Shown here: positions 6,455 to 64,000 of the stretch, in pieces
Position numbering within the stretch: position 1 is the stretch's first letter
Layout: every line of letters begins with the position of its first letter
Assembly (NCBI RefSeq): GCF_048403405.1
Contig: NZ_CP183129.1
DNA from: Escherichia coli
GTDB taxonomy: Bacteria; Pseudomonadota; Gammaproteobacteria; Enterobacterales; Enterobacteriaceae
Direction: 5' to 3' (one strand)
Length of the DNA stretch: 64,000 bases
Program-made: the position numbers and the translations under genes
Notes under the pieces: generated by a model
Databases searched by the model: none
What the model was told of the DNA's origin: nothing
The model's input: the letters and a program-made list of their open reading frames with translations, nothing else

Positions 6455-7547
6455 GGTTGTATTGCTGTGCCGTCCGGGCTTTGAAAAAGAGTGCGCCGCA
6501 GAAATTACCGATAAAGCCGGCCAGCGGGAAATTTTCGGTTTTGCCCGCGTGAAAGAGAATGCGGGTTATGTCATTTATGAATGTTATCAACCTGATGATG
6601 GCGATAAGTTAATCCGTGAGCTGCCGTTCAGTTCATTAATTTTTGCCCGCCAGTGGTTTGTGGTGGGGGAACTCCTGCAGCATTTGCCGCCAGAAGATCG
6701 TATTACTCCCATTGTCGGCATGTTACAGGGCGTAGTAGAGAAGGGCGGTGAACTGCGTGTTGAAGTTGCCGATACCAACGAAAGCAAAGAGTTGCTGAAA
6801 TTCTGCCGTAAATTCACCGTGCCGCTACGCGCTGCCTTGCGCGATGCGGGTGTGCTGGCGAACTATGAAACGCCGAAGCGTCCGGTTGTACATGTATTCT
6901 TTATTGCACCAGGCTGCTGCTATACCGGTTACTCATACAGCAACAATAATTCGCTGTTCTATATGGGCATTCCGCGCCTGAAATTTCCGGCAGATGCGCC
7001 GAGTCGTTCCACGCTTAAACTGGAAGAGGCATTTCATGTGTTTATTCCTGCGGATGAGTGGGATGAACGCCTGGCGAACGGGATGTGGGCGGTGGATTTA
7101 GGCGCTTGCCCAGGCGGCTGGACCTACCAACTGGTGAAGCGCAACATGTGGGTTTATTCCGTCGACAACGGCCCGATGGCGCAAAGTCTGATGGATACCG
7201 GACAGGTGACGTGGCTGCGGGAAGACGGTTTCAAATTCCGTCCGACACGCAGCAATATCTCCTGGATGGTATGCGATATGGTTGAAAAACCGGCGAAAGT
7301 TGCGGCATTGATGGCGCAGTGGCTGGTTAATGGCTGGTGCCGTGAAACCATTTTCAACCTCAAACTGCCGATGAAAAAACGCTACGAAGAAGTGTCACAC
7401 AATCTGGCGTATATTCAGGCACAGCTTGATGAACATGGCATAAATGCTCAGATTCAGGCGCGGCAGTTGTATCACGATCGCGAAGAAGTGACGGTGCACG
7501 TCCGCCGTATCTGGGCTGCGGTGGGTGGTCGTCGCGACGAGCGATAA
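6447..7547 (+). CDS. rlmM: 23S rRNA (cytidine2498-2'-O)-methyltransferase
   Basis: 366 aa [20 protein letters not shown]... matches RlmM (YgdE); overlaps ygdD by 8 nt. Confidence 0.92.
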
Positions 7548-15929: not shown

Positions 15930-18163
<2,234 letters not shown>

Positions 18164-18220
18164 AGGAAATACATCGCGTTAAAACGGAGGAAGCGCCGCC
18201 CGAAAGCGGCGCGAAAGGAC

Positions 18221-19510
18221 TTAGCTGAACAGAGAGTAGAAGATTGCGGAGATTGCAATCAGACCCATCACGACAACGAATACGTTGCTGATGTGACCGC
18301 TGTACTTACGCATTGCCGGTACTTTCTGAATTGCGTACATCGGCATCAGGAACAGGATCATCGCGATGATTGGGCCGCCCAGGGTTTCAATCATACCCAG
18401 GATGCTCGGGTTCAGGGTGGCAACAATCCAGGTCGTTACCAGCATGAACAGCGCAGTGATACGGTTCAGCTTGTTGATTTCGATAGACTTACCTTTACCA
18501 CGCAGAGATTTAATCACCATACCGTTGAAGCCTTCACGTGCGCCCAGGTAGTGGCCGAGGAAGGATTTGGTGATAGCGATAATCGCGATAATCGGAGCCA
18601 TCCACGCGATAACCGGTGCGTTAAAGTGGTTAGCCAGGTAAGACAGAATCGAGATGTTCTGCTCTTTAGCCGCAGCCAGGTCTGCCGGAGTCAGGCTCAG
18701 TACGCAGCTGAATACGAAGAACATTACGGTCAGCACCATCATGATGTGTGCGAATGCCAGGATCTTCGAGCATTTCTGTTCTGCCATATCGCCGTACTCT
18801 TCACGCTTCGCAACAGCGAAAGAAGAGATGATCGGAGAGTGGTTGAACGAGAACACCATTACTGGAATTGCCAGCCACAGGGTCATCCACAGACCGTTTC
18901 CGGTTGCCGATGCAGTGTCCAGAGACAGCGTTTCCAGTGCTGCGCCGTTCCACTGCGGGATCAGGTACAGAGCCAGCAGCATCAGTACGCCAACAAACGG
19001 GAATACCAGAATACTCATCGCTTTAACGATCATCTGCTCACCGAAGCGAACGATGGTCATCATACCCACGATCAGGATCAGCGACAGAATCGCACGCGGC
19101 GGTGGTGTCATACCCAGCTGATGAGACATGAAGCTTTCAACTGTATTGGTGATTGCCACGCTATAAACCAGCAGGATCGGGTAGATAGCGAAGAAGTAGA
19201 GCAGGGTAATCAGTTTACCTGCGCCAATACCAAAGTGTTCTTCTACAACCTCGGTGATGTCTTCGCCTGGGTTTTTACCAGACAGTACGAAGCGAGTCAG
19301 GCCGCGGTGAGCAAAAAATGTCATCGGGAACGCAAGGATAGCCATGATGATCAGCGGGATCATACCGCCAACACCGGCGTTGATTGGCAGGAACAGCACG
19401 CCCGCGCCGATTGCCGTGCCGTAAAGGCCCAGCATCCACATGGTGTCTGTCTTGCGCCAGGCACTACGAGAGTCTTTCGACGCAATCGTGCTGGTTTGAG
19501 TCGTTTCCAT
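18221..19510 (-). CDS. sdaC: Serine:H+ symporter
   Basis: 429 aa [31 protein letters not shown]... matches SdaC (HAAAP family). Confidence 0.95.
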
Positions 19511-20065
19511 CTATTTCTCCTGGAGGAATGCAAATAATTCAGCTTTTAGCCAGTTCAGCCCGGGAAGGTGCCTGACCGTAAAAATGAAATCTGTCTATCG
19601 GCGATGGCTTAATCATTTACCGCCGTAATAATTTGAGGGCGGAAAGATACACACAAGTTATGTATCTATCAGTGATCTTGATCCCAAATACAATAATCTA
19701 CTTGGAAGATAGATTATCCCAACGCTTTACTCTGTAAATCAAAAGTAAAAGAGAATTTAAGGGCAATATTTGCCCATTAAACGACATCTGACTTCTTCCG
19801 GGGCGCGCAATATATGTAGGTTGAACTGAAAAAATCAATACTTTTAGTTAATCATGGCGATAATTTCTTTTTCATAGCGATAAAATGTGGTTTATGAAAA
19901 TAGGGAAACGTTTGCGTTGCAATATAAATTGTATGACATATTAACTGTGATGATATTTATCGCGTGAGGGTGGTAAGAAACATTCATATAACAAATGAAA
20001 TAAATTGATGGGTATGTGACCAAAAACGAGAAAACCCGGCAACAAACGTCACCGGGGGAGGGAGA

Positions 20066-41094: not shown

Positions 41095-41967
41095 TTACCA
41101 GCGACCGGACGCGCCGCCACCGCCAGAAGAACCGCCCCCGCCGCTAAATCCGCCGCCACTTGAGCCGCCACCGGAACCGCTGTTGTCTGAATGATAACTT
41201 CTACCAGATGCTTTTTTCTGAAGTACACATAAACAGGTAAAGACCATAATGGTGGTGAAAGTAAAAAAGAAGAAAAATACAGCAATGGAAAAAGTTTTAT
41301 CGGAGAACAGGAATAAATCTAAAAGATAGATTGCTGAAATACAGACACTGCTTTTACATGCGCGACAAAAATTACTGCCTTGATGAAAAAACCAGAAAGG
41401 GAAGAACATCACTGCAAATACCCAAAAAATAGCAAAGTAGTAATGATCGCTGGAAGACGCTGATTCACTTTCTGAAGGATTAGCCGAATATTGGTGTTGT
41501 GAAGTGAGTTGGTTATTCAAAGCGATTATAGCTAACTCTAATCCCTTAGCTAATTTTTGTTGTTTAAATGCGGGTATCATGTTGCTACGGATGATATCTC
41601 CAGCCAGAGCATCGGTTACCTTTTCTTCCAGCCCATAACCTACCTGGATGCGGACAGTACGATCCGACCAGGCAACAATGATCAGTATCCCATCATTGCG
41701 TTTGGCATCTCCTAAACGCCAATTGTTAAAAACCCTTGTAGCATATTGTTCAATTGTCTCGTCTTTGGTTGTGGGAATAATTAATACAGCAATTTGTACT
41801 TGGGTATTATTGAAAATAGATTCTAACTTCCGCGTCAGTTCTTTCTTTTCTTGTGAGTTTAAGCTACTCGTAAGATCCGTAACTTGTTGCTGTAATTGTG
41901 GGACAATAGTTGGTTGGGCTGCAACAAAGGAACACACGAATGTGAATATTAGTATGAAATAGCGCAT
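41095..41967 (-). CDS. ygcG: TPM-domain (TLP18.3/Psb32/MOLO-1 phosphatase-like) membrane protein YgcG
   Basis: Signal peptide [21 protein letters not shown] domain, TM segment, Gly/Ser-rich C-terminal tail ([27 protein letters not shown]); start set at the ATG at 41967 (290 aa), the track start at 42012 is also an ATG; AT-rich coding sequence. Confidence 0.8.
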
Positions 41968-42260
41968 TATAAATGTCCCATTAAAGCTGGATAAATAAAT
42001 TGACGGCGACATCGGTAATTTGAGATTCGTTATAATTAAAAACGAACACAGAAAAAATAAGTATAATTTTGGTGAATGTTTTTGACATGATTAAATCCAT
42101 TTGCTTTATTTATTTCTGACATAATACGTTACTCCCTTTTATTATTAACGATCTGTTTCTCATTTTTCTTTAAACCTGCCTGTAACAGAATGTTAATAAG
42201 ACATGATTGTTGCGGCAGGATCTGCAATAATTAACAATTATCCACTTCACAGAGAATGCT

Positions 42261-42932
42261 ATGCAGTACCCGATTAACGAGATGTTCCAGACCCTGCAAG
42301 GTGAGGGTTACTTTACCGGCGTCCCCGCCATTTTTATTCGTTTACAGGGATGCCCGGTTGGCTGTGCCTGGTGCGACACCAAACACACCTGGGAAAAGCT
42401 TGAGGATCGGGAAGTCTCCCTTTTCAGCATTCTGGCGAAGACCAAAGAGAGTGATAAGTGGGGGGCGGCGAGCAGTGAAGACTTGCTGGCTGTCATTGGT
42501 CGCCAGGGATACACCGCGCGGCATGTGGTGATTACGGGTGGTGAGCCTTGCATTCATGATTTGCTGCCACTGACTGACCTGCTCGAAAAGAACGGTTTTA
42601 GCTGCCAGATCGAAACCAGTGGTACTCATGAAGTACGCTGCACACCGAATACCTGGGTTACCGTATCGCCAAAGCTGAACATGCGCGGCGGCTATGAAGT
42701 GTTGTCACAGGCACTGGAGCGAGCCAACGAAATCAAGCATCCAGTGGGACGCGTGCGTGATATTGAAGCACTGGATGAACTACTGGCAACACTGACCGAT
42801 GATAAACCGCGAGTCATTGCGCTGCAGCCGATTAGCCAAAAGGAAGATGCTACTCGTTTATGTATCGATACGTGCATTGCGCGCAACTGGCGTTTGTCGA
42901 TGCAAACACATAAATATTTAAATATTGCCTGA
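42261..42932 (+). CDS. queE: 7-carboxy-7-deazaguanine synthase (radical SAM)
   Basis: 223 aa MQYPINEMFQTLQGEGYFTGVPAIFIRLQGCPVGCAWCDTKHTW... (CxxxCxxC-variant radical SAM motif). Confidence 0.95.
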   Translation: MQYPINEMFQTLQGEGYFTGVPAIFIRLQGCPVGCAWCDTKHTWEKLEDREVSLFSILAKTKESDKWGAASSEDLLAVIGRQGYTARHVVITGGEPCIHDLLPLTDLLEKNGFSCQIETSGTHEVRCTPNTWVTVSPKLNMRGGYEVLSQALERANEIKHPVGRVRDIEALDELLATLTDDKPRVIALQPISQKEDATRLCIDTCIARNWRLSMQTHKYLNIA

Positions 42933-43069
42933 TTAAACATTTATAAGCGTTATAAATGGGTGGAACCTGTAAAGACTTCTACTCATTTATATTCTTTGTC
43001 GCCTCTAAAAAACCTCCATTTTGCCCATCCTGGACTAATCATTATCATTTTCTACAAATTCTGTGGTGT

Positions 43070-43270
43070 TAATTTTTCGTTGGAGTGAAAATTATTGCGG
43101 TGAAATTTGGTAGATTTTAGTTTGAATAGAGTTATTTTAAATATTTATCTTTTTAATCAATGGATTAAATGCTCTTTAACATAATGGATGTGTTGTTTGT
43201 GTGATCCTGTAAAGTTGGTAGATTGTGACTGGCTTAAAAAATCATTAATTAATAATAGGTTATGTTTAGA
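43070..43270 (+). promoter_or_regulatory. CRISPR leader (AT-rich, promoter and spacer-acquisition signals)
   Basis: About 200 bp AT-rich sequence ending ...aatcattaattaataataggttatgtttaga directly abutting the first repeat; degenerate repeats lie at the opposite end of the array, fixing polarity; left boundary approximate. Confidence 0.55.
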
Positions 43271-44031
43271 GTGTTCCCCGCGCCAGCGGGGATAAACCGC
43301 GTTCAGCGTTGCTGGGCTGCGCAATGGACTGGTGTTCCCCGCGCCAGCGGGGATAAACCGCGGAGTTTTCACGGAACGCACAGCGAATTATGGTGTTCCC
43401 CGCGCCAGCGGGGATAAACCGCCGATAAATTTTCGCCCCGTTTCCAGCGCCGCGTGTTCCCCGCGCCAGCGGGGATAAACCGTTCAAACTGTAGGGATCG
43501 GCAATGGTGCCGAAGTGTTCCCCGCGCCAGCGGGGATAAACCGGGGCATTAGAATAACTTAAATGGAAAAAGAAAGTGTTCCCCGCGCCAGCGGGGATAA
43601 ACCGTCAGCCAGCACATAATTTTTATAGTCAGTATTGTGTTCCCCGCGCCAGCGGGGATAAACCGAAAGAGGTTATCGAGCGATATAACGCGTCCATGTG
43701 TTCCCCGCGCCAGCGGGGATAAACCGGTGCCTGGCGTCCATCTATTCACATGCCGCGCGTGTTCCCCGCGCCAGCGGGGATAAACCGTATTGGCGACGAT
43801 GGCATACCAGGACTACTCCGTGTTCCCCGCGCCAGCGGGGATAAACCGGCTCAGCGTCTGCTCTGGTGCCTCGCCCGTGAGTGTTCCCCGCGCCAGCGGG
43901 GATAAACCGGACCGTTACGGGCGCGTTCTTGGACTTGTTGAGTGTTCCCCACATCAGCGGGGATAAACCGGACACAGAGCGCCGCTATAGCGCCTATGCC
44001 AAGAGTTTCCCGCACCAGCGGGAATAAACCA
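43271..44031 (+). CRISPR. Type I-E CRISPR array: 13 repeats of 29 bp, 12 spacers of 32 bp (the queE-ygcE array of E. coli)
   Basis: Repeat GTGTTCCCCGCGCCAGCGGGGATAAACCG at 43271, 43332, 43393, 43454, 43515, 43576, 43637, 43698, 43759, 43820, 43881, then degenerate copies at 43942 (gtgttccccacatcagcggggataaaccg) and 44003 (gagtttcccgcaccagcgggaataaacca); exact 61-bp period. Confidence 0.97.
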
Positions 44032-44500
44032 CCATATAACCCGTTATCTCTTTCTCAAGTTTTTATATTAGCTGTACTTGTAATAAGCAACATATCCACG
44101 TAACACCTCATGTTCAAAATAGTTCTCCATGTCAGAGAAGTTCACAATTATCGATACAAAAAATTAAATTTAATCAAAGTGTTATTTGTATGATTCTTAA
44201 ATCGTTAAGAAATTTTAATCTATTATTTTTTTAATATTGAATTAATGCCTGTTAATTTTTTCTTTAGAATAACAGTGTGTTTTTTAAGCTTGTTATTCAT
44301 TGATTAAGTAATAAATCTGGAAGTTTGTCTTTGTTTTGAGGCTAATGAGTGGTTTTACATAACCGTCTCTATAGGCTGTTGATGAATAGTTCTTATGAAT
44401 AAAGATATCCAGTTCATACTTTAAATGAAAATTGATAAAGTACGGTTTGCGTTGTCTTTTATTCTAAAGACATCGAGTGTAGTTAATATTCCTTGTAAAA

Positions 44501-44623
44501 ACAGGGATAAACCGAACTAGTTAAAGTTTTTATTATGTTCCCTGCATCAGCGGGGATAAACCGGACTTGTTATCATTTTTTAAGTTGTCGAACTTATGTT
44601 CCCCACGTCAGCGGGGATAACCA
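44501..44623 (+). CRISPR. Decayed satellite CRISPR array (truncated repeat, two degenerate repeats, one 32-bp spacer)
   Basis: Partial repeat cagggataaaccg (ends 44514), degenerate repeats atgttccctgcatcagcggggataaaccg (44535-44563) and atgttccccacgtcagcggggataacc (44596-44623) separated by a 32-bp spacer; preceded by about 470 bp of AT-rich leader-like sequence. Confidence 0.8.
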
Positions 44624-44669
44624 TTCAGGTATGTTCAGGCCGGGCAGTTTCCCGCCCGGTCTTCCTCAC

Positions 44670-46148
44670 TTACGCATTCGACCAGCTCTGGATCGAATCC
44701 GCATTCCCCAATTCCCCATGCATCACTTCATACGATTTTTTCAGGATTACATCAGTATGTTTGGTTAACTCCTTGAAAATGCCTTTATTCATCGCGTTGT
44801 AGCGTTTGGCGTTGCTCTCAACAGGCATAAAGATATCTTTCACGCGAACCATTTTGTCGACAGCCGTTGCGTAATCCGGGTATAGCCCCAGACCTACCGC
44901 CGTATTAATCGCTGCCCCCAGGCTTGCACAACCATTAATGGCGTTACGGCGTGCCGGAAGGTTGAACACGTCGGCAAAAATCTGCATAAACAGATCGCTG
45001 TTCGAACCGCCGCCAGTAATGATCACATGCTTTGCAAAGTGATTCATTTCATTACACATATTGTCGTAATTGTTCTTCAGCGTCAGCGCCACGCTTTCCA
45101 GTATCGAACGATATATCCATGCGTAATCCATGCTGGAATCAAAGCCAATCATAATCCCGCGTTTGTACGGTTCCCACGGATTGGTCAGCCAGTCCAGCAC
45201 CGTCATCAGACCATTACAGCCTGGCGGCACACAAGACGCTTTTTTGTTGAGCAAATCTTCCGGTGAAAGATCCTGTGCTTTGGCATCCTGAATTAACGAC
45301 TCGCCTAACATGTCGCGTAGCCAGCTCACCGTCCACATGCCTTTGCGAATACCGTAACCTTCATACAGCAAGGTTTGCGGAATAGAAGACATAATCGGCC
45401 AGTACGCTACCGGATCTTTCGGTAGTAATTTGCCGTTCATCATCAACGCGATGTAAGTGCCAAGAGAAATTACCGCAGTTTCATCATCCAGTAACCCGGC
45501 TCCCAGTGCTTCTACCGGTTTATCACTGGTGGTACAAACAACCGGCAGCCCAGCCGGGAAATGTGTCGCCAGCGCGGCTTGAGGAGTGATATGCCCAAGA
45601 ACAGTGCCCGGCATTTGCACATCAAACAGCATATGACGGGGGATATTAAACTTCTCCATGACTGCGGCATCTTCACTCCATGCCCAGGTCTTATAATCCA
45701 CCGGCCACTGACCAAAATAGTTGGCGATATTGTCTTTAAACTCGCCGGTTAAGCGATGCGTCAGATAACCCGAAAAAGAGGTGACATATGCCACGTCAGG
45801 ATTCGTATGTTCGTAAGGGCGTGTAACGCGTGCATCCTGCCAGCTAATCAACGGCGCAGCTGGCGTGCCATCGGCTTTCAATAACGCACGGCAGCAACGG
45901 ATGGATCCCAGACCAATACCGACAATATCTTCTTTATTTCCGGCAAACTGACTCATCAAATCGTGACCGGCAAAGCATAATGATGCCCATAAATCGTCGT
46001 CAGGATGTTCTGCGGTATCGGCATCTGGCGTGTGCATCGGCTGCAATAAGCCTTTGCCTTCGCAAACCACATTACCTTCCAGATCGTACATCACCACTTT
46101 TGTGCTCTGACTTCCACCATCAATCCCTATGATGTATTTTTTCGACAT
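44670..46148 (-). CDS. ygcE: FGGY-family carbohydrate kinase (uncharacterised substrate)
   Basis: 492 aa MSKKYIIGIDGGSQSTKVVMYDLEGN...; FGGY sugar kinase fold; matches YgcE. Confidence 0.88.
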   Translation of the reverse strand: MSKKYIIGIDGGSQSTKVVMYDLEGNVVCEGKGLLQPMHTPDADTAEHPDDDLWASLCFAGHDLMSQFAGNKEDIVGIGLGSIRCCRALLKADGTPAAPLISWQDARVTRPYEHTNPDVAYVTSFSGYLTHRLTGEFKDNIANYFGQWPVDYKTWAWSEDAAVMEKFNIPRHMLFDVQMPGTVLGHITPQAALATHFPAGLPVVCTTSDKPVEALGAGLLDDETAVISLGTYIALMMNGKLLPKDPVAYWPIMSSIPQTLLYEGYGIRKGMWTVSWLRDMLGESLIQDAKAQDLSPEDLLNKKASCVPPGCNGLMTVLDWLTNPWEPYKRGIMIGFDSSMDYAWIYRSILESVALTLKNNYDNMCNEMNHFAKHVIITGGGSNSDLFMQIFADVFNLPARRNAINGCASLGAAINTAVGLGLYPDYATAVDKMVRVKDIFMPVESNAKRYNAMNKGIFKELTKHTDVILKKSYEVMHGELGNADSIQSWSNA

Positions 46149-60725: not shown

Positions 60726-60878
60726 ATGCTGACAAAATATGCCCTTGTGGCAATCATCGTACTGTGTTGTACAGTACTGGGATTCACGCTGATGGTAGGC
60801 GACTCGTTGTGTGAGTTGAGTATCAGAGAACGTGGTATGGAGTTTAAGGCAGTTCTCGCTTACGAATCGAAGAAGTAG
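60726..60878 (+). CDS. Hok-family type I toxin (50-aa small membrane protein), part of a hok/sok-like locus
   Basis: [53 protein letters not shown]: N-terminal TM helix plus conserved Hok motif DSLCE...R...[11 protein letters not shown]; below the 60-aa cutoff of the ORF track; followed by hairpin cgcgggg gtaaaa ccccgcg (60885-60904) and a T run; K-12 carries a hok/sok-type locus (sokX) at this position. Confidence 0.8.
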
Positions 60879-61115
60879 CCACCACGCGGGGGTAAAACCC
60901 CGCGTATTGGATTGTGATGGTTTGGTCTCCTGCACCCTTTTTTAATTTATATTGTTTATGTAAATATTATGCCTATGTTTATTATTCATATATATTACGG
61001 ATGAAAATTATTTGATTATTCATAATGTAAATATTTTATTGAACGATATATATCACAGATAATTTTTAATATATGCGTAAATATCCTTTAAGTTTTACTG
61101 AAGGATAAAAACATT

Positions 61116-63773
61116 GTGACTTTCTTTGATTTCTGGGGAAAAACCCGACGTGGCGAGAAAGAGGGTGGTGACGACTATCACCTTCTTTGCTGGCATTCGC
61201 TGGATGTAGCCGCGATGGGCTATTTAATGGTTAAAAGCAATTGCTTCGGGCTGGCTGACTATTTTCGTCAACTAGGTTTCGCTGATACGGAGCAGGCAGC
61301 ACAATTTTTCGCCTGGTTGCTGTGCTGGCACGATACTGGAAAATTTGCCCGCTCTTTTCAGCAACTTTACCTGCACCCGCAACTCAAGGTTCCGGAAAGC
61401 TCTAGAAAAAATTACGAAAAAATCTCTCATTCAACGCTGGGTTACTGGTTGTGGCACCATTATTTAAGTGAATGCGAAGAATTGCTTCCTTCATCTTCAC
61501 TCTCTCCGCGCAAACTTAAACGGGTGATAGAGATGTGGATGCCCATGACTACCGGGCATCATGGTCGCCCGCCTGACCGTATGGATGAACTGGATAATTT
61601 TCTGCCTGAAGACAAAGCCGCCGCGCGAGATTTTCTCCTTGTAATCAAGGCACTGTTTCCTCTCATCGAGATCCCCGCATTCTGGGATGATGACGATGGC
61701 GTTGAACTTTTAAAACAACTTTCCTGGTATATCTCTGCAACTGTCGTACTTGCAGACTGGACGGGATCGTCAACGCGATTTTTTCCACGCGTCGCGCAGG
61801 CAATGGATATTGAAGATTACTGGCAGAAGGCTTTAGTTCAGGCTCAAAACGCATTAACCGTCTTTCCTCCAAAAGCACAAACCGCGCCTTTCACCGGAAT
61901 TAATACGCTGTTTCCTTTTATTGAGCACCCGACACCGTTACAGCAAAAGGTGCTGGATCTGGATATCAGCCAGCCTGGGCCACAGTTATTTATTCTGGAG
62001 GATGTGACTGGCGCAGGTAAAACAGAAGCGGCGCTTATCCTGGCCCACAGGTTGATGGCTGCGGGGAAAGCACAGGGTTTGTTTTTTGGCCTGCCAACAA
62101 TGGCAACGGCCAATGCCATGTACGATCGGCTGGTAAAAACCTGGCTTGCTTTCTATTCGCCAGAATCCCGCCCCAGCCTGGTGCTGGCACACAGTGCCCG
62201 CACATTAATGGACCGCTTTAATGAATCACTCTGGTCCGGTGATTTAGTCGGGTCAGAAGAACCGGATGAACAAGCGTTCAGTCAGGGATGTGCGGCCTGG
62301 TTTGCCGACAGTAACAAGAAGGCGTTGCTGGCTGAAATTGGCGTCGGCACGCTGGATCAGGCGATGATGGCGGTGATGCCGTTTAAACATAATAATCTGC
62401 GGCTTCTGGGACTGAGTAACAAAATCCTGCTGGCTGATGAGATCCATGCCTGTGACGCTTACATGTCGTGCATTCTTGAAGGATTGATTGAGCGGCAGGC
62501 GCGTGGCGGAAACAGCGTTATTTTGCTTTCTGCCACGTTATCTCAACAGCAGCGCGACAAACTCGTTGCTGCCTTTGCGCGTGGTGCAGAGGGTCAGCAA
62601 GAAGCTCCGTTCCTGGAAAAGGATGATTACCCCTGGCTGACGCACGTTACGAAATCGGATGTGCATTCACACCGGGTAGCAACGCGCAAAGACGTTGAGC
62701 GTAGCGTGAGCGTGGGTTGGCTTCATAGCGAACAAGAGTGTATTGCGCGTATCGAATCGGCGGTAAGTCAGGGGAAATGCATCGCCTGGATCCGGAATTC
62801 TGTCGATGATGCTATTAAAGTTCATCGTCAGTTGCTTGCCCGCGGCGTCATTCCTGCTTCCAGCCTTTCTCTGTTTCATAGCCGCTTTGCTTTTAGCGAT
62901 CGCCAGCGAATTGAAACGGAAACGCTGGCACGCTTCGGTAAAGAAGATAGCTCACAGCGTGCCGGAAAAGTCCTCATTTGTACTCAGGTCTTAGAGTCGA
63001 GCGTTGATTGCGATATGGACGAAATGATTTCCGACCTGGCCCCTGTTGATTTGCTGATCCAGCGAGCGGGGCGATTACAGCGGCATATCCGCGATATTAA
63101 TGGTCAGTTAAAGCGTGACGGAAAAGACGAGCGTTCTCCTCCTGAATTGCTGATTCTGGCCCCCGTCTGGGACGACGCTCCAGGTGACGAATGGTTCGGC
63201 AGTGCCATGCGTAACAGTGCATATGTCTATCCCGATCATGGACGAATCTGGCTGACGCAGCGTGTACTGCGTGAGCAAGGCGCGATTCAAATGCCACACG
63301 CAGCCCGCCTTCTTATTGAATCAGTCTACGGTGAGGACGTGGTAATGCCGGAAGGATTTGCCCGCAGCGAGCAGGAACAAGTGGGCAAATATTACTGCGA
63401 TCGCGCAATGGCTAAAAAGTTTGTGCTGAACTTCAGGCCCGGCTATGCCGCCAATATCAACGATTACCTCCCGGAAAAGCTGTCGACACGTCTGGCTGAG
63501 GAGTCTGTTTCCCTGTGGCTGGCTACCTGTATTGACGGTGTGGTGAAGCCTTATGCCACCGGTGCTCACGCATGGGAAATGAGCGTTGTCAGAGTGCGTC
63601 GAAGCTGGTGGAAAAAACATTGCGATGAGTTTTCTTTACTGGAAGGGGAAGCGTTCAGGCAGTGGTGCGTTGAACAGCGGCAAGATCCGGAGATGGCAAA
63701 TGTGATTTTAGTTACCGATGACGAAAGTTGCGGGTATTCGGCTAGGGAGGGATTGATTGGTAAGGTTGATTGA
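61116..63773 (+). CDS. cas3: Cas3 (type I-E CRISPR-associated HD nuclease / SF2 helicase), non-K-12 allele
   Basis: 885 aa; HD motifs (HSLDVAA, WHDTGKF), helicase motif I TGAGKTEA, motif II DEIH, motif III SATL, motif VI QRAGRLQRH; GTG start; sits directly downstream of cysH as in E. coli; N-terminal sequence differs from the K-12 Cas3 I recall (MEPFKYICHYWGKS...). Confidence 0.9.
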   Translation: MTFFDFWGKTRRGEKEGGDDYHLLCWHSLDVAAMGYLMVKSNCFGLADYFRQLGFADTEQAAQFFAWLLCWHDTGKFARSFQQLYLHPQLKVPESSRKNYEKISHSTLGYWLWHHYLSECEELLPSSSLSPRKLKRVIEMWMPMTTGHHGRPPDRMDELDNFLPEDKAAARDFLLVIKALFPLIEIPAFWDDDDGVELLKQLSWYISATVVLADWTGSSTRFFPRVAQAMDIEDYWQKALVQAQNALTVFPPKAQTAPFTGINTLFPFIEHPTPLQQKVLDLDISQPGPQLFILEDVTGAGKTEAALILAHRLMAAGKAQGLFFGLPTMATANAMYDRLVKTWLAFYSPESRPSLVLAHSARTLMDRFNESLWSGDLVGSEEPDEQAFSQGCAAWFADSNKKALLAEIGVGTLDQAMMAVMPFKHNNLRLLGLSNKILLADEIHACDAYMSCILEGLIERQARGGNSVILLSATLSQQQRDKLVAAFARGAEGQQEAPFLEKDDYPWLTHVTKSDVHSHRVATRKDVERSVSVGWLHSEQECIARIESAVSQGKCIAWIRNSVDDAIKVHRQLLARGVIPASSLSLFHSRFAFSDRQRIETETLARFGKEDSSQRAGKVLICTQVLESSVDCDMDEMISDLAPVDLLIQRAGRLQRHIRDINGQLKRDGKDERSPPELLILAPVWDDAPGDEWFGSAMRNSAYVYPDHGRIWLTQRVLREQGAIQMPHAARLLIESVYGEDVVMPEGFARSEQEQVGKYYCDRAMAKKFVLNFRPGYAANINDYLPEKLSTRLAEESVSLWLATCIDGVVKPYATGAHAWEMSVVRVRRSWWKKHCDEFSLLEGEAFRQWCVEQRQDPEMANVILVTDDESCGYSAREGLIGKVD

Positions 63774-63777
63774 GATG

Positions 63778-63801
63778 CCCTGGAGTCGGAGGACTCCAGG
63801 G
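63778..63801 (+). other. GC-rich hairpin 5 nt after the cas3 stop codon
   Basis: ccctggagtc ggag gactccaggg, 10-bp perfect stem with 4-nt loop, no following U run. Confidence 0.6.
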
Positions 63802-63889
63802 CCTATCCCCGCTGACGCGGGGAACGGAATAACAGAGTAACAGGAGCTACCTCTTACTGCTGGTTTATCCCTACGTTAATAGGGAAGAA
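63799..63889 (-). repeat. Two degenerate CRISPR-repeat-like units in inverted orientation, 62 bp apart
   Basis: gggcctatccccgctgacgcggggaacgg (63799-63827) matches the reverse complement of the array repeat at 24 of 29 positions with the stem-loop preserved; ctggtttatccctacgttaatagggaaga (63861-63889) matches at 17 of 29, concentrated at both ends; spacing close to the 61-bp array period. Confidence 0.5.
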
Positions 63890-64000
63890 GGGAGTATAGC
63901 ATCTACTGAGATGAATTTGTTTTGATATTTAATGTGAACTTCCTCTTACTGCCTTTACATTTTTCTATGCGAGGAGTAATCTTTGCTCAGTTTGGGAGAG

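Follow-up and report, generated by a model that had tools for sequence, protein, structure and literature searches.

The locus examined here lies in a 64-kb stretch of Escherichia coli DNA, referred to below as the window, which belongs to strain MS 69-1 (window identity 100%). Along the locus, queE (ygcF) is followed by a leader, an array of 13 repeats, a 454-bp AT-rich block, a mini-array, and finally ygcE (Table 1). The leader next to queE, leader 2.3, carries the conserved motifs of type I-E leaders, namely a TTTAGA junction, a GTTGGTAGATTGT box, and a AATCAATGGATTA box corresponding to the IHF consensus. Its counterpart in E. albertii is 93% identical. The final two repeats of the main array, CRISPR2.3, are degenerate (26/29 and 24/29 positions), and the very last one ends in ...ACCA. 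Between the mini-array and the stop codon of ygcE lies a GC-rich hairpin, which likely marks the end of the array transcript and/or of the ygcE mRNA. This hairpin is kept in E. albertii and E. whittamii, and a simple terminator scan did not call it.

Table 1. Features of the CRISPR-II locus between queE and ygcE, with positions in the window.
Feature	Position	Strand	Description	Basis
queE (ygcF)	42261–42932	+	Upstream anchor gene of the CRISPR-II locus	ORF; RefSeq annotation of identical record NZ_CP146675.1
Leader 2.3	42933–43270	+	True leader of the queE-side array; GC 0.29	
CRISPR2.3, main array	43271–44031	+	13 repeats, 12 spacers, 61-nt spacing	PGAP: CRISPR direct_repeat
AT-rich non-coding block	44032–44485		454 bp; GC 0.275	
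Mini-array (CRISPR2.2)	44486–44624	+	R1-S1-R2-S2-R3; 45 bp from ygcE stop	
R1	44486–44514	+	Full-length degenerate repeat; 19/29 vs consensus	
S1	44515–44534	+	Short spacer, 20 nt; GC 0.15	
R2	44535–44563	+	Degenerate repeat; 25/29; 3' handle intact	
S2	44564–44595	+	32-nt spacer GACTTGTTATCATTTTTTAAGTTGTCGAACTT; GC 0.28	
R3	44596–44624	+	Terminal repeat; 23/29; 3' end degenerate (ATAACCAT)	
GC-rich hairpin GGCCGGGCAGTTTCCCGCCCGG	44638–44661		Between R3 and ygcE stop; TCTTCCTCACTT follows on + strand	
ygcE	44670–46148	-	FGGY-family carbohydrate kinase; downstream anchor gene, convergent with the arrays	ORF and annotation

The mini-array corresponds to CRISPR2.2, described by Diez-Villasenor et al. 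in 2010, as cited in PMC3903273, PMC4489801, and PMC3737337. It shares with the published array the locus, the gene order, the orientation, the three repeats, the two invariable spacers, the distance of 0.5 kb from CRISPR2.3, and the fact that no leader has been assigned, and it is 99.3% identical to the K-12 copy (one base in 139 differs). Nothing essential distinguishes the two, as MS 69-1 only adds a private change in the R3 stem and a cluster of five substitutions. The spacers of CRISPR2.2 have been called 'invariable' (PMC4489801), and leaders have been described only for the CRISPR2.1 and CRISPR2.3 arrays (PMC3903273). The separating block is also known: Touchon & Rocha mention a conserved '~0.5 kb non-coding sequence' dividing CRISPR2 (PMC2886076), and a paper in ISME J from 2024 refers to a '0.5-kb AT-rich sequence' in this role (PMC10910852). 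Both describe the same 454-bp block as an interruption of one array, in agreement with the spacer-slot geometry discussed below. Since the feature has been described since 2010 in a textbook organism, finding it adds nothing new in itself. Added to the published descriptions of the block are its conserved flanks and variable centre, its lack of leader motifs, and the presence of R3 in Escherichia that do not carry the block. The value for annotation is small: PGAP leaves the mini-array unmarked in both MS 69-1 and K-12, and CRISPR typing schemes are inconsistent in treating the locus as one array or two.

Repeats, spacers and predicted processing of the mini-array

The repeats were scored against the 29-nt consensus GTGTTCCCCGCGCCAGCGGGGATAAACCG. 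R1, R2, and R3 are oriented like the repeats of the main array, and all three begin with AT instead of GT or GA. Elsewhere in the 64-kb window, zero plus-strand 29-mers reach at least 19 of 29 consensus positions, and zero matches to the consensus with up to three mismatches are expected in shuffled sequence. A chance origin of the repeats, the outcome that would have undermined the original prediction, is thereby rejected. The period from R2 to R3 is 61 nt, while R1 and R2 are only 49 nt apart because S1 measures just 20 nt. The sequence of S2 is exactly the 32-nt spacer quoted earlier from the same stretch.

R1 had been taken for a truncated repeat fragment ending at 44514. This view is rejected, as R1 is a full-length repeat that retains the canonical hairpin. 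It folds as the consensus repeat does, with a 7-bp stem and a 4-nt loop in the same register, with two compensated pairs and a G-U pair preserving the hairpin. The probability that a random AT-rich 5' half gives this fold is about 0.0009. The last 8 nt of R1, ATAAACCG, which form the 5' handle of a crRNA, are intact. All ten changes in R1 lie outside these 8 nt and leave the stem in place, a pattern expected under neutral decay with P = 5e-5 to 1.6e-3. With R1 as a full-length repeat, the mini-array consists of three repeats and two spacers of 20 and 32 nt. The original prediction of two degenerate repeats and a single spacer holds for R2, R3, and S2, and had missed the 20-nt S1. The two spacers are related in their 5' portions, with 12 of the first 17 nt in common (shuffle P = 0.0012). 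Among the other repeats, R2 has an intact hairpin with one U-G wobble, and R3 of MS 69-1 carries a private G-to-A change that creates an A-C mismatch within the stem. The private cluster of five substitutions is located just upstream of R1.

The repeats were further assessed as substrates of Cas6e, using a 7-bp stem with a 4-nt loop (fold ....(((((((....))))))).) as the criterion. On the plus strand, the hairpin is predicted in the same register in R1, R2, and R3, with fold energies of -7.9 and -12.1 kcal/mol for R1 and R2, -15.1 kcal/mol for the common R3 allele, and -9.7 kcal/mol for the MS 69-1 allele with its mismatch. On the minus strand, the predicted hairpins of R1 and R2 are broken by a mismatch. 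Judged from the sequence, RNA of the mini-array looks processable by Cas6e. Transcription would most likely proceed on the plus strand, either as read-through from the promoter of leader 2.3 or starting at a weak promoter within the block, and would end at the hairpin at 44638–44661. A consensus promoter scan detected one weak plus-strand site inside the block (44141–44170); the five sites in the region are no excess over shuffled sequence (3.5 ± 2.0), and a terminator scan of the block likewise gave no excess over shuffles. Given three Cas6e hairpins and the 8-nt handles of R1 and R2, cells expressing the Cas proteins should be capable of processing such a transcript. The predicted products are a canonical 61-nt crRNA containing S2 and a 49-nt crRNA containing S1. 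Cascade still assembles with spacers as short as 14–20 nt (PMC5159557).

The AT-rich block and the trailer end of the array

The block takes up exactly one spacer slot, as a full repeat ends at 44031 and the full-length R1 begins at 44486. Its extent agrees with the roughly 470 bp of AT-rich sequence noted before, being 454 bp, or 470 bp when counted to 44501. A single type I-E array runs from leader 2.3 by queE towards ygcE, and its oldest, leader-distal end, R1-S1-R2-S2-R3, is split from the active part by the block. The mini-array is the older, leader-distal portion of this array. The tandem arrangement of two arrays of different age proposed in the original prediction is borne out in this form, and the literature names the two parts CRISPR2.2 and CRISPR2.3 (PMC3903273, PMC4489801). 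Conservation of the block is confined to its flanks; its centre (about 44180–44330) is hypervariable and constitutes the most variable stretch of the locus.

Relatives without the block identify R3 as the repeat that ancestrally ends this array within the genus. R3 is orthologous to the terminal repeat of single arrays in E. albertii (leader-R-S-R-S-R3), E. whittamii (leader-R3), and the B2 E. coli strains MS7163 and ATCC 11775 (leader-R-S-R3). The block is absent from all four, and all of them end in the ...GTCAGCGGGGATAACCATTCAGGTATGTTCAGG junction. The only variants of mini-array content seen, in metagenomes, are deletions. Two contigs carry R1-S1-R3 (L096, L158) and one carries R1-S2-R3 (L182), and in a fourth (L165) the array is continuous, with a hybrid 2.3/R2 repeat followed by S2 and R3. 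When metagenomes were searched for more diverged mini-arrays related to this one, only sequences at the level of E. coli were recovered. The differences between S1 and S2, and between R1 and R2, far exceed the variation of any one of them within E. coli, which suggests that the mini-array unit is older than the species. Given this divergence, an insertion in E. coli fits no better than losses in B2 strains, E. albertii, and E. whittamii.

No homologues of the block were found among INPHARED phages, PLSDB plasmids, or 80 Enterobacteriaceae queE loci, the matches in the first two collections being mislabelled chromosomes, CRISPR repeats, or noise with E > 0.01. Rfam holds no family for it. A mobile element was considered and rejected, as the block has no terminal inverted repeats or target duplications and contains only short AT-rich inverted repeats.

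The original prediction saw in the block a second leader, now or formerly, and in the mini-array a decayed independent array, so that two leader-array units would stand in tandem. The block matches leader 2.3 in AT-richness and adjoins R1 on its upstream side in the right orientation, although AT-rich sequence directly upstream of a first repeat is by itself unspecific. The three repeats starting with AT would form a lineage of their own, S2 has exactly the 32 nt expected of a genuine Cas1-Cas2 product, and published work lists the mini-array as an array of its own. For comparison, ten I-E leaders from Enterobacteriaceae were aligned and an nhmmer profile HMM was built from them. These leaders share TTTAGA at -6 to -1, GTTGGTAGATTGT near -58, and AATCAAT..GTTAG, the IHF consensus, near -105, and the TTTAGA junction and the GGTAGAT box are invariant across all ten. 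At the corresponding distances upstream of R1 and R2, none of the shared motifs occurs, and the TTTAGA junction and GGTAGAT box are missing there. The best hit of the profile in the block and mini-array reaches only E = 0.41 (-0.9 bits), and the lone match to the IHF consensus (44172–44184) is about 300 nt from R1. Smith-Waterman comparison of the block with leader 2.3 returned a 46-nt AT-rich local match of about 83% identity (43134–43180 vs 44212–44256), which spans the IHF-box/CTCTTTAA region of the leader. Its score (z = 3.5) was attained by 2 of 300 shuffles and is borderline after four comparisons, and the match is 230–270 nt away from R1, where about 100 nt would be expected. Furthermore, spacer gain at R1 was seen in no genome examined, number and content of the mini-array are invariant across more than 4000 genomes, and published leaders are assigned only to the 2.1 and 2.3 arrays. 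The claim of a second leader is thus not supported, and the tandem reading built on it is regarded as improbable.

The locus is probably best explained as the published CRISPR2.2 together with the 0.5-kb AT-rich separator of CRISPR-II (queE/ygcF-ygcE), that is, as the frozen, leader-less trailer of one I-E array. The conserved leader elements used in Cas1-Cas2/IHF-dependent integration are lacking in the block. Without them the mini-array would be unable to gain spacers and would thus be frozen, as both the anatomy and the population data suggest. It would change solely through recombination between repeats, which may delete S1, S2, or the whole block, the last yielding a merged 'CRISPR2.2-3' array. 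Ordinary trailer ends with 'anchor' spacers are similar in that their oldest units are leader-distal, their terminal repeat is degenerate at the 3' end, and their spacers are present in most strains. In contrast, 454 bp of non-CRISPR DNA set the mini-array apart, and it includes a spacer of only 20 nt. The overall interpretation given in the original prediction is therefore partly supported, the older downstream array being retained and its leader abandoned.

Conservation, targets and possible functions

Comparison with other E. coli, which had been proposed as a check, located the block and mini-array at a coverage of at least 80% in 4123 of 5426 complete genomes, always on the chromosome and at a median copy number of one. 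About a quarter of the genomes, B2 strains included, lack the mini-array. Its content is unchanged in 4036 genomes (at least 80% coverage), at most one of the 139 bases differs from MS 69-1 in 2834 of 4155 matching genomes (68%), and all but three of these 4155 are at least 95% identical. Nucleotide diversity (pi) amounts to 0.009 in the mini-array, compared with 0.05 in the real leader and 0.09–0.14 at four-fold sites of the neighbouring queE and ygcE. The suggestion that the retained spacer is ancient and possibly fixed is supported by this near-invariance. Among 82 metagenome loci, mean divergence from K-12 is 0.26% in the mini-array and 2.1–2.3% in the adjacent ygcE coding sequence, with the search pattern having fixed 42 of the 139 mini-array positions. 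This leader-less remnant with two spacers is more conserved than neighbouring protein-coding sequence. Polymorphism in 89 sequences is concentrated in the loop and the degenerate tail of R3, and common variants avoid stems, handles, and spacers. The near-invariance could reflect purifying selection, hence a function beyond that of a relic, and in that case the relic explanation would be incomplete. However, in the same strains the first 200 nt of queE, synonymous sites included, likewise show a pi near 0. This equal trough weakens the diversity of the mini-array as proof of selection; a trough of this kind can also arise from a shallow local genealogy, with no selection involved.

The search of the spacers against mobile elements, the second proposed check, yielded no protospacer for S1 or S2 in phages or plasmids (for S2, no match at E ≤ 1) or in IMG/VR. 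Exact 17- to 20-mers of the spacers in IMG/VR came down to a mis-binned copy of the same E. coli locus, which is also the sole full match to S2, and one chance 17-mer. The sequence of S2 had no match in the full text of the literature searched. As no target was found for either spacer, a relic of old immunity is the simplest reading.

Alternatively, selection may maintain the mini-array as a crRNA-like regulatory gene of the CreR/CreA/scaRNA type. RNA of S1, of S2, or of both would then direct Cascade to a promoter on the chromosome and repress it by partial, PAM-proximal pairing instead of destroying an invader. Like CreR/CreA (bioRxiv 10.1101/2023.03.10.532045; PMC10120712), the mini-array is degenerate, with the 5' handle kept in its first repeat and the hairpin side in its last; it also has conserved 'spacers' and lacks a leader competent for acquisition. 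R1 retains both handle and hairpin while the rest decays, and in R3 the hairpin side persists despite a decayed 3' end, matching the CreR repeats; since 3' decay also affects ordinary terminal repeats, the pattern is informative in R1 only. The decay pattern of R1, the sparing of stems, handles, and spacers by frequent variants, and the extremely low diversity and divergence all fit a selectively maintained crRNA-like gene, and the common 5' portions of S1 and S2 point the same way. The mechanism is available in the strain: between cas3 and casA, MS 69-1 has a genuine CreR-type mini-array, for which there is an 11-nt seed target with an AAG PAM.

For S1 and S2, a scan with the functional I-E PAMs (AAG/ATG/AGG/GAG) and a 5'-anchored run of at least 9 nt found no such site in the 64-kb window or in the cas loci of MS 69-1 (L003) and K-12 (L004). 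A regulatory crRNA-like role is unproven because no PAM-plus-seed target was found there. Known CreR/CreA elements sit inside the cas operon and have two repeats, whereas the mini-array has three and is separated from the cas genes by about 19 kb, the distance being about 16.5 kb to the cas3 start and about 19.6 kb to the casA start. The diversity trough shared with queE, the quarter of genomes lacking the mini-array, and the positions set by the metagenome search pattern also count against selection. Promoter repression by these RNAs is therefore considered unlikely, and equally little likelihood is given to CRISPR2.2 being a species-wide, selectively maintained crRNA-like gene that guides Cascade by partial pairing. 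In such a gene, R1-S1-R2-S2-R3 would be transcribed and cleaved by Cas6e, and the invariant S2 and/or the 20-nt S1, the latter with a Cascade of reduced stoichiometry, would direct the complex to a chromosomal or prophage site. If true, this would be a second, array-linked regulatory guide RNA of E. coli outside the cas operon. The concept of CreR/crRNA-like regulators would then reach a locus distant from cas, in the type I-E system that has been studied most.

Coding constraint offers another explanation for the conservation. The right end of the block together with R1 could encode a 31-residue protein (44425–44520, MKIDKVRF[A/V]LSFILKTSSVVNIPCKNRDKPN). The reading frame is open in 9 of 9 genomes compared, and its start codon is ATG in MS 69-1 but GTG elsewhere. 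Of the six further variable sites, four fall on third codon positions, and both replacements are conservative. Nevertheless, the bias towards third positions lacks significance (binomial P about 0.1) and stems mostly from the private cluster of five changes in MS 69-1. No Shine-Dalgarno sequence precedes the start, and the exact peptide, in either allele, is missing from about 15 billion predicted proteins, as are five peptides from small ORFs of the block. One metagenome allele (L104) stops at codon 10 and another (L170) has a 1-nt deletion. A protein-coding origin of the conservation appears very improbable. S2, R2, and R3 are equally conserved, yet they lie outside this reading frame.

Layout and published status of the mini-array

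In the window, ygcG (minus strand) is followed by queE (plus), a leader, a 13-repeat array (CRISPR2.3), an AT-rich block with a mini-array, and ygcE (minus). The original prediction placed repeats and AT-rich sequence downstream of the main array. Both are present there, and the observation is confirmed, as no plus-strand 29-mer outside the CRISPR locus attains 19/29 matches or more in the 64-kb window. A truncated repeat fragment ending at 44514, two degenerate repeats and a single 32-nt spacer had been described. The 32-nt spacer, S2, was recovered exactly. The supposed fragment is instead a full-length repeat, R1, which folds like the consensus repeat and in register with it, as a 7-bp stem with a 4-nt loop; an unrelated AT-rich 5' half would do so with P ~0.0009. 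The mini-array therefore comprises three repeats and two spacers, including the additional 20-nt S1. Seven of the 29 positions distinguish R1 from R2, and S1 significantly resembles S2, with 12 of the first 17 positions matching (shuffle P = 0.0012).

Features of the queE-ygcE interval and of the cas3-casA mini-array (repeat scores are matches to the array consensus)
Feature	Coordinates	Strand	Remarks
queE	42261-42932	+	
AT-rich leader			338 bp, between queE and array
Type I-E array	43271-44031		13 repeats
AT-rich block	44032-44485		454 bp, GC 0.275
R1	44486-44514		19/29
S1	44515-44534		20 nt
R2	44535-44563		25/29
S2	44564-44595		32 nt
R3	44596-44624		23/29
ygcE	44670-46148	-	
cas3-casA mini-array	63799-63955 (including the site matched by its spacer)	-	
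cas3-casA repeat-like unit 1	63889..63861	-	17/29, hairpin kept, ATAAACCA handle
cas3-casA spacer	63860..63828	-	33 nt, GCAGTAAGAGGTAGC...
cas3-casA repeat-like unit 2	63827..63799	-	23/29

Between ygcE and ygcF, the CRISPR-II locus contains either one array (CRISPR2.2-3) or two (CRISPR2.2 and CRISPR2.3) located 0.5 kb apart, with leaders adjoining CRISPR2.1 and CRISPR2.3 only (PMC3903273). Mini-array and block are already in the literature, the former as CRISPR2.2 and the latter as the 0.5-kb AT-rich sequence that interrupts the E. coli CRISPR2 array. Of 5426 RefSeq complete genomes, 4123 carry block and mini-array at ≥80% coverage, on the chromosome in every case and with a median copy number of one. 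PGAP annotation covers the main array only, in strain MS 69-1 (chromosome NZ_CP146675.1, identical to the window over the region queried) and K-12 alike.

The AT-rich block and type I-E leaders

The block starts directly after a full 29-nt repeat ending in ...ACCA and ends immediately before the first base of R1. Flush between two full-length repeats, it therefore fills exactly one spacer slot. No relatives were detectable in phages, plasmids or 80 enterobacterial queE loci, no Rfam family matched, and the block has no terminal inverted repeats.

The block had been interpreted as a second leader. Ten type I-E leaders were used for comparison, namely E. coli 2.1 (two cas variants), E. coli 2.3, and seven from other Enterobacteriaceae obtained by a scan for QueE loci. 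Common to these leaders are TTTAGA at the border with the first repeat, a GTTGGTAGATTGT box at about -58 and, at about -105, the box AATCAAT..GTTAG, which in leader 2.3 is a perfect IHF consensus. None of the three was found at a matching distance upstream of R1 or R2, and a ten-leader profile HMM with all filters off gave a best E of 0.41 (-0.9 bits) against block and mini-array. One 46-nt AT-rich local match links leader 2.3 (43134-43180) with the block (44212-44256; z = 3.5, reached by 2 of 300 shuffles). Its spacing from R1 is wrong, and over their final 100 nt the two sequences score lower than their shuffles. A promoter scan gave no excess of sites over shuffles. As the defining motifs are missing and no spacer gain was seen at the mini-array, the leader interpretation is supported neither by sequence features nor by behaviour.

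Leader 2.3 itself has two TTGGTAGATT boxes (43110-43125 and 43213-43228), ~105 nt apart. In the E. whittamii leader, the stretch between these boxes is deleted, leaving one hybrid box (6840-6870 of locus L005) in front of a single-repeat array.

Variability in the queE-ygcE locus peaks in the block centre (44180-44330), where pi rises to as much as 0.2 in 50-nt windows. Strain MIN6 has a mostly different centre with long poly-T runs, while both flanks are conserved. Relaxed constraint, slippage-prone tracts or allele replacement may lie behind this variability. MS 69-1 carries a private cluster of five substitutions (44442, 44445, 44448, 44450 and 44451, four of them exactly 3 nt apart) and an A/G difference at 44425, in near-invariant surroundings. 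This allele (44425-44451) gains CGGTTT, the reverse complement of the repeat's AAACCG. The cluster resembles the outcome of one multi-base event or of a small import.

Array relationships and predicted crRNAs

The queE-side arrays of E. albertii (leader-R-S-R-S-R3), E. whittamii (leader-R3) and B2 E. coli (MS7163 and type strain ATCC 11775; leader-R-S-R3) lack the block. Because R3 and the sequence flanking it have orthologues in the last repeat and flank (...GTCAGCGGGGATAACCATTCAGGTATGTTCAGGCCGGGCAG...) of these arrays, R3 is the ancestral terminal repeat of a single queE-to-ygcE array, and R1-S1-R2-S2-R3 is the leader-distal end of that array. Phytobacter and Pseudocitrobacter likewise carry arrays beside queE in this orientation.

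The unit was recovered on 93 metagenome contigs, all at E. coli-level divergence and most of them canonical. S2 is lost in two (L096 and L158, R1-S1-R3) and S1 in one (L182, R1-S2-R3). Contig L165 has a continuous array ending in a hybrid 2.3/R2 repeat, S2 and R3, a structure that points to block deletion through repeat-repeat recombination. Merged "2.2-3" arrays can therefore be secondary; for this reason, and as the two units are deeply diverged, the block may either have been inserted in E. coli or have been lost elsewhere. Larger rearrangements were also observed. In E. coli OkiPb01688 (L086), IS1 lies 62 bp into the block, and the remaining block, mini-array, ygcE and yqcE are deleted. 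FWSEC0010 (L089) keeps the mini-array; a truncated ygcE is joined there to queD, and ~11 kb of ygc genes are lost.

In predicted folds, the plus-strand hairpin is kept in R1, R2 and R3, being held by two compensated pairs and a G-U pair in R1 and by a G-U pair in R2. On the minus strand, these G-U pairs become mismatches and the hairpins are interrupted. The 8-nt crRNA 5' handle ATAAACCG is intact in R1 and R2 and lost in R3, the last unit. Survival of both the full R1 stem and its last 8 nt through ten neutral substitutions has a probability of 5e-5 to 1.6e-3. In MS 69-1, the R3 stem contains an A-C mismatch private to this strain. As hairpins and handles are kept and E. coli Cascade accepts shortened spacers (PMC5159557), one 61-nt and one 49-nt crRNA are plausible products if the mini-array is transcribed. 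Spacer searches yielded no protospacer for S1 or S2 in phages, plasmids or IMG/VR, where exact 17-20-mers matched just a mis-binned copy of the E. coli locus and one chance sequence. In MS 69-1, cas3 is annotated as a frameshifted pseudogene (~61076-63776; 17080-19780 of its cas locus L003), and casA through cas2 and the CRISPR2.1 array are intact directly past the window end; thus, interference is probably disabled and crRNA processing is not.

Conservation and its possible sources

Pairwise diversity (pi) among nine diverse genomes is 0.009 in the mini-array, 0.022 in the right 145 bp of the block, 0.031 in its left 99 bp, 0.047 in the 45-bp R3-ygcE spacer, 0.050 in leader 2.3, 0.07-0.12 in the block centre, and 0.089 and 0.137 at four-fold sites of queE and ygcE, respectively, the ygcE value being unusually high. 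The mini-array lies within one base in 139 of MS 69-1 in 2834 of 4155 genomes having a match, compared with just 608 of 5367 for a 139-nt stretch of ygcE coding sequence next to it (median identity ~95.7%). In the metagenome loci, mean divergence from K-12 is 2.1-2.3% in ygcE, 1.66% in the leader and 0.26% in the mini-array, where the search pattern itself fixed 42 of the 139 positions. Recurrent variants among 89 full-length sequences fall in the R3 loop and the R3 degenerate tail; in addition, a site in the R2 stem varies in three sequences and a site in S1 in two. These data support the proposed fixed spacer, and the original prediction is half right, in its old, fixed mini-array and not in its second leader.

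Such conservation agrees with "invariable spacers" and could reflect purifying selection. Another possible source is a shallow local genealogy of this recombining region, since the first 200 nt of queE, synonymous sites included, have a pi near 0 among these strains too. A coding explanation, by a 31-codon ORF (44425-44520) overlapping the conserved right end of the block and R1, is very unlikely: its few variable sites show third-position bias, but it has no ribosome-binding site, its product is missing among ~15 billion predicted proteins, two metagenome alleles break it, and the equally conserved R2-S2-R3 is left uncovered. Regulation of the CreR type, described for I-E loci including E. 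coli (bioRxiv 10.1101/2023.03.10.532045; PMC10120712), is possible but unsupported for the queE-side mini-array, as neither the 64-kb window nor the cas loci of MS 69-1 and K-12 contain a PAM-flanked seed match to S1 or S2 (a 5'-anchored run of ≥9 nt next to a functional PAM).

A second degenerate mini-array, in the cas3-casA intergenic region and antisense to the cas genes, resembles these published crRNA-like cas-regulating mini-arrays and is probably already known. The first 11 nt (PAM-proximal) of its spacer match 63952..63942, 92 nt off and ~290 nt upstream of casA, with an AAG PAM before the site (chance ~1e-5 in a region of such size). The cas3-casA spacer of K-12 has one comparable repeat-like hairpin.

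Within queE, the 5' 200 nt (42261-42460) show zero diversity among eight diverse strains and the 3' third (42600-42930) a pi of 0.05-0.08. From this contrast, the surroundings of the CRISPR-II locus are a recombination mosaic. In the ygcG-queE interval, yqcG, a small envelope-stress gene (~41920-42061; 889-1030 of locus L001), is annotated as frameshifted in MS 69-1 and is intact in K-12. The annotation also places a toxin gene of the Hok/Gef family immediately upstream of the cas locus, in the cysH-cas3 interval (~60729-60881; L003 16733-16885).
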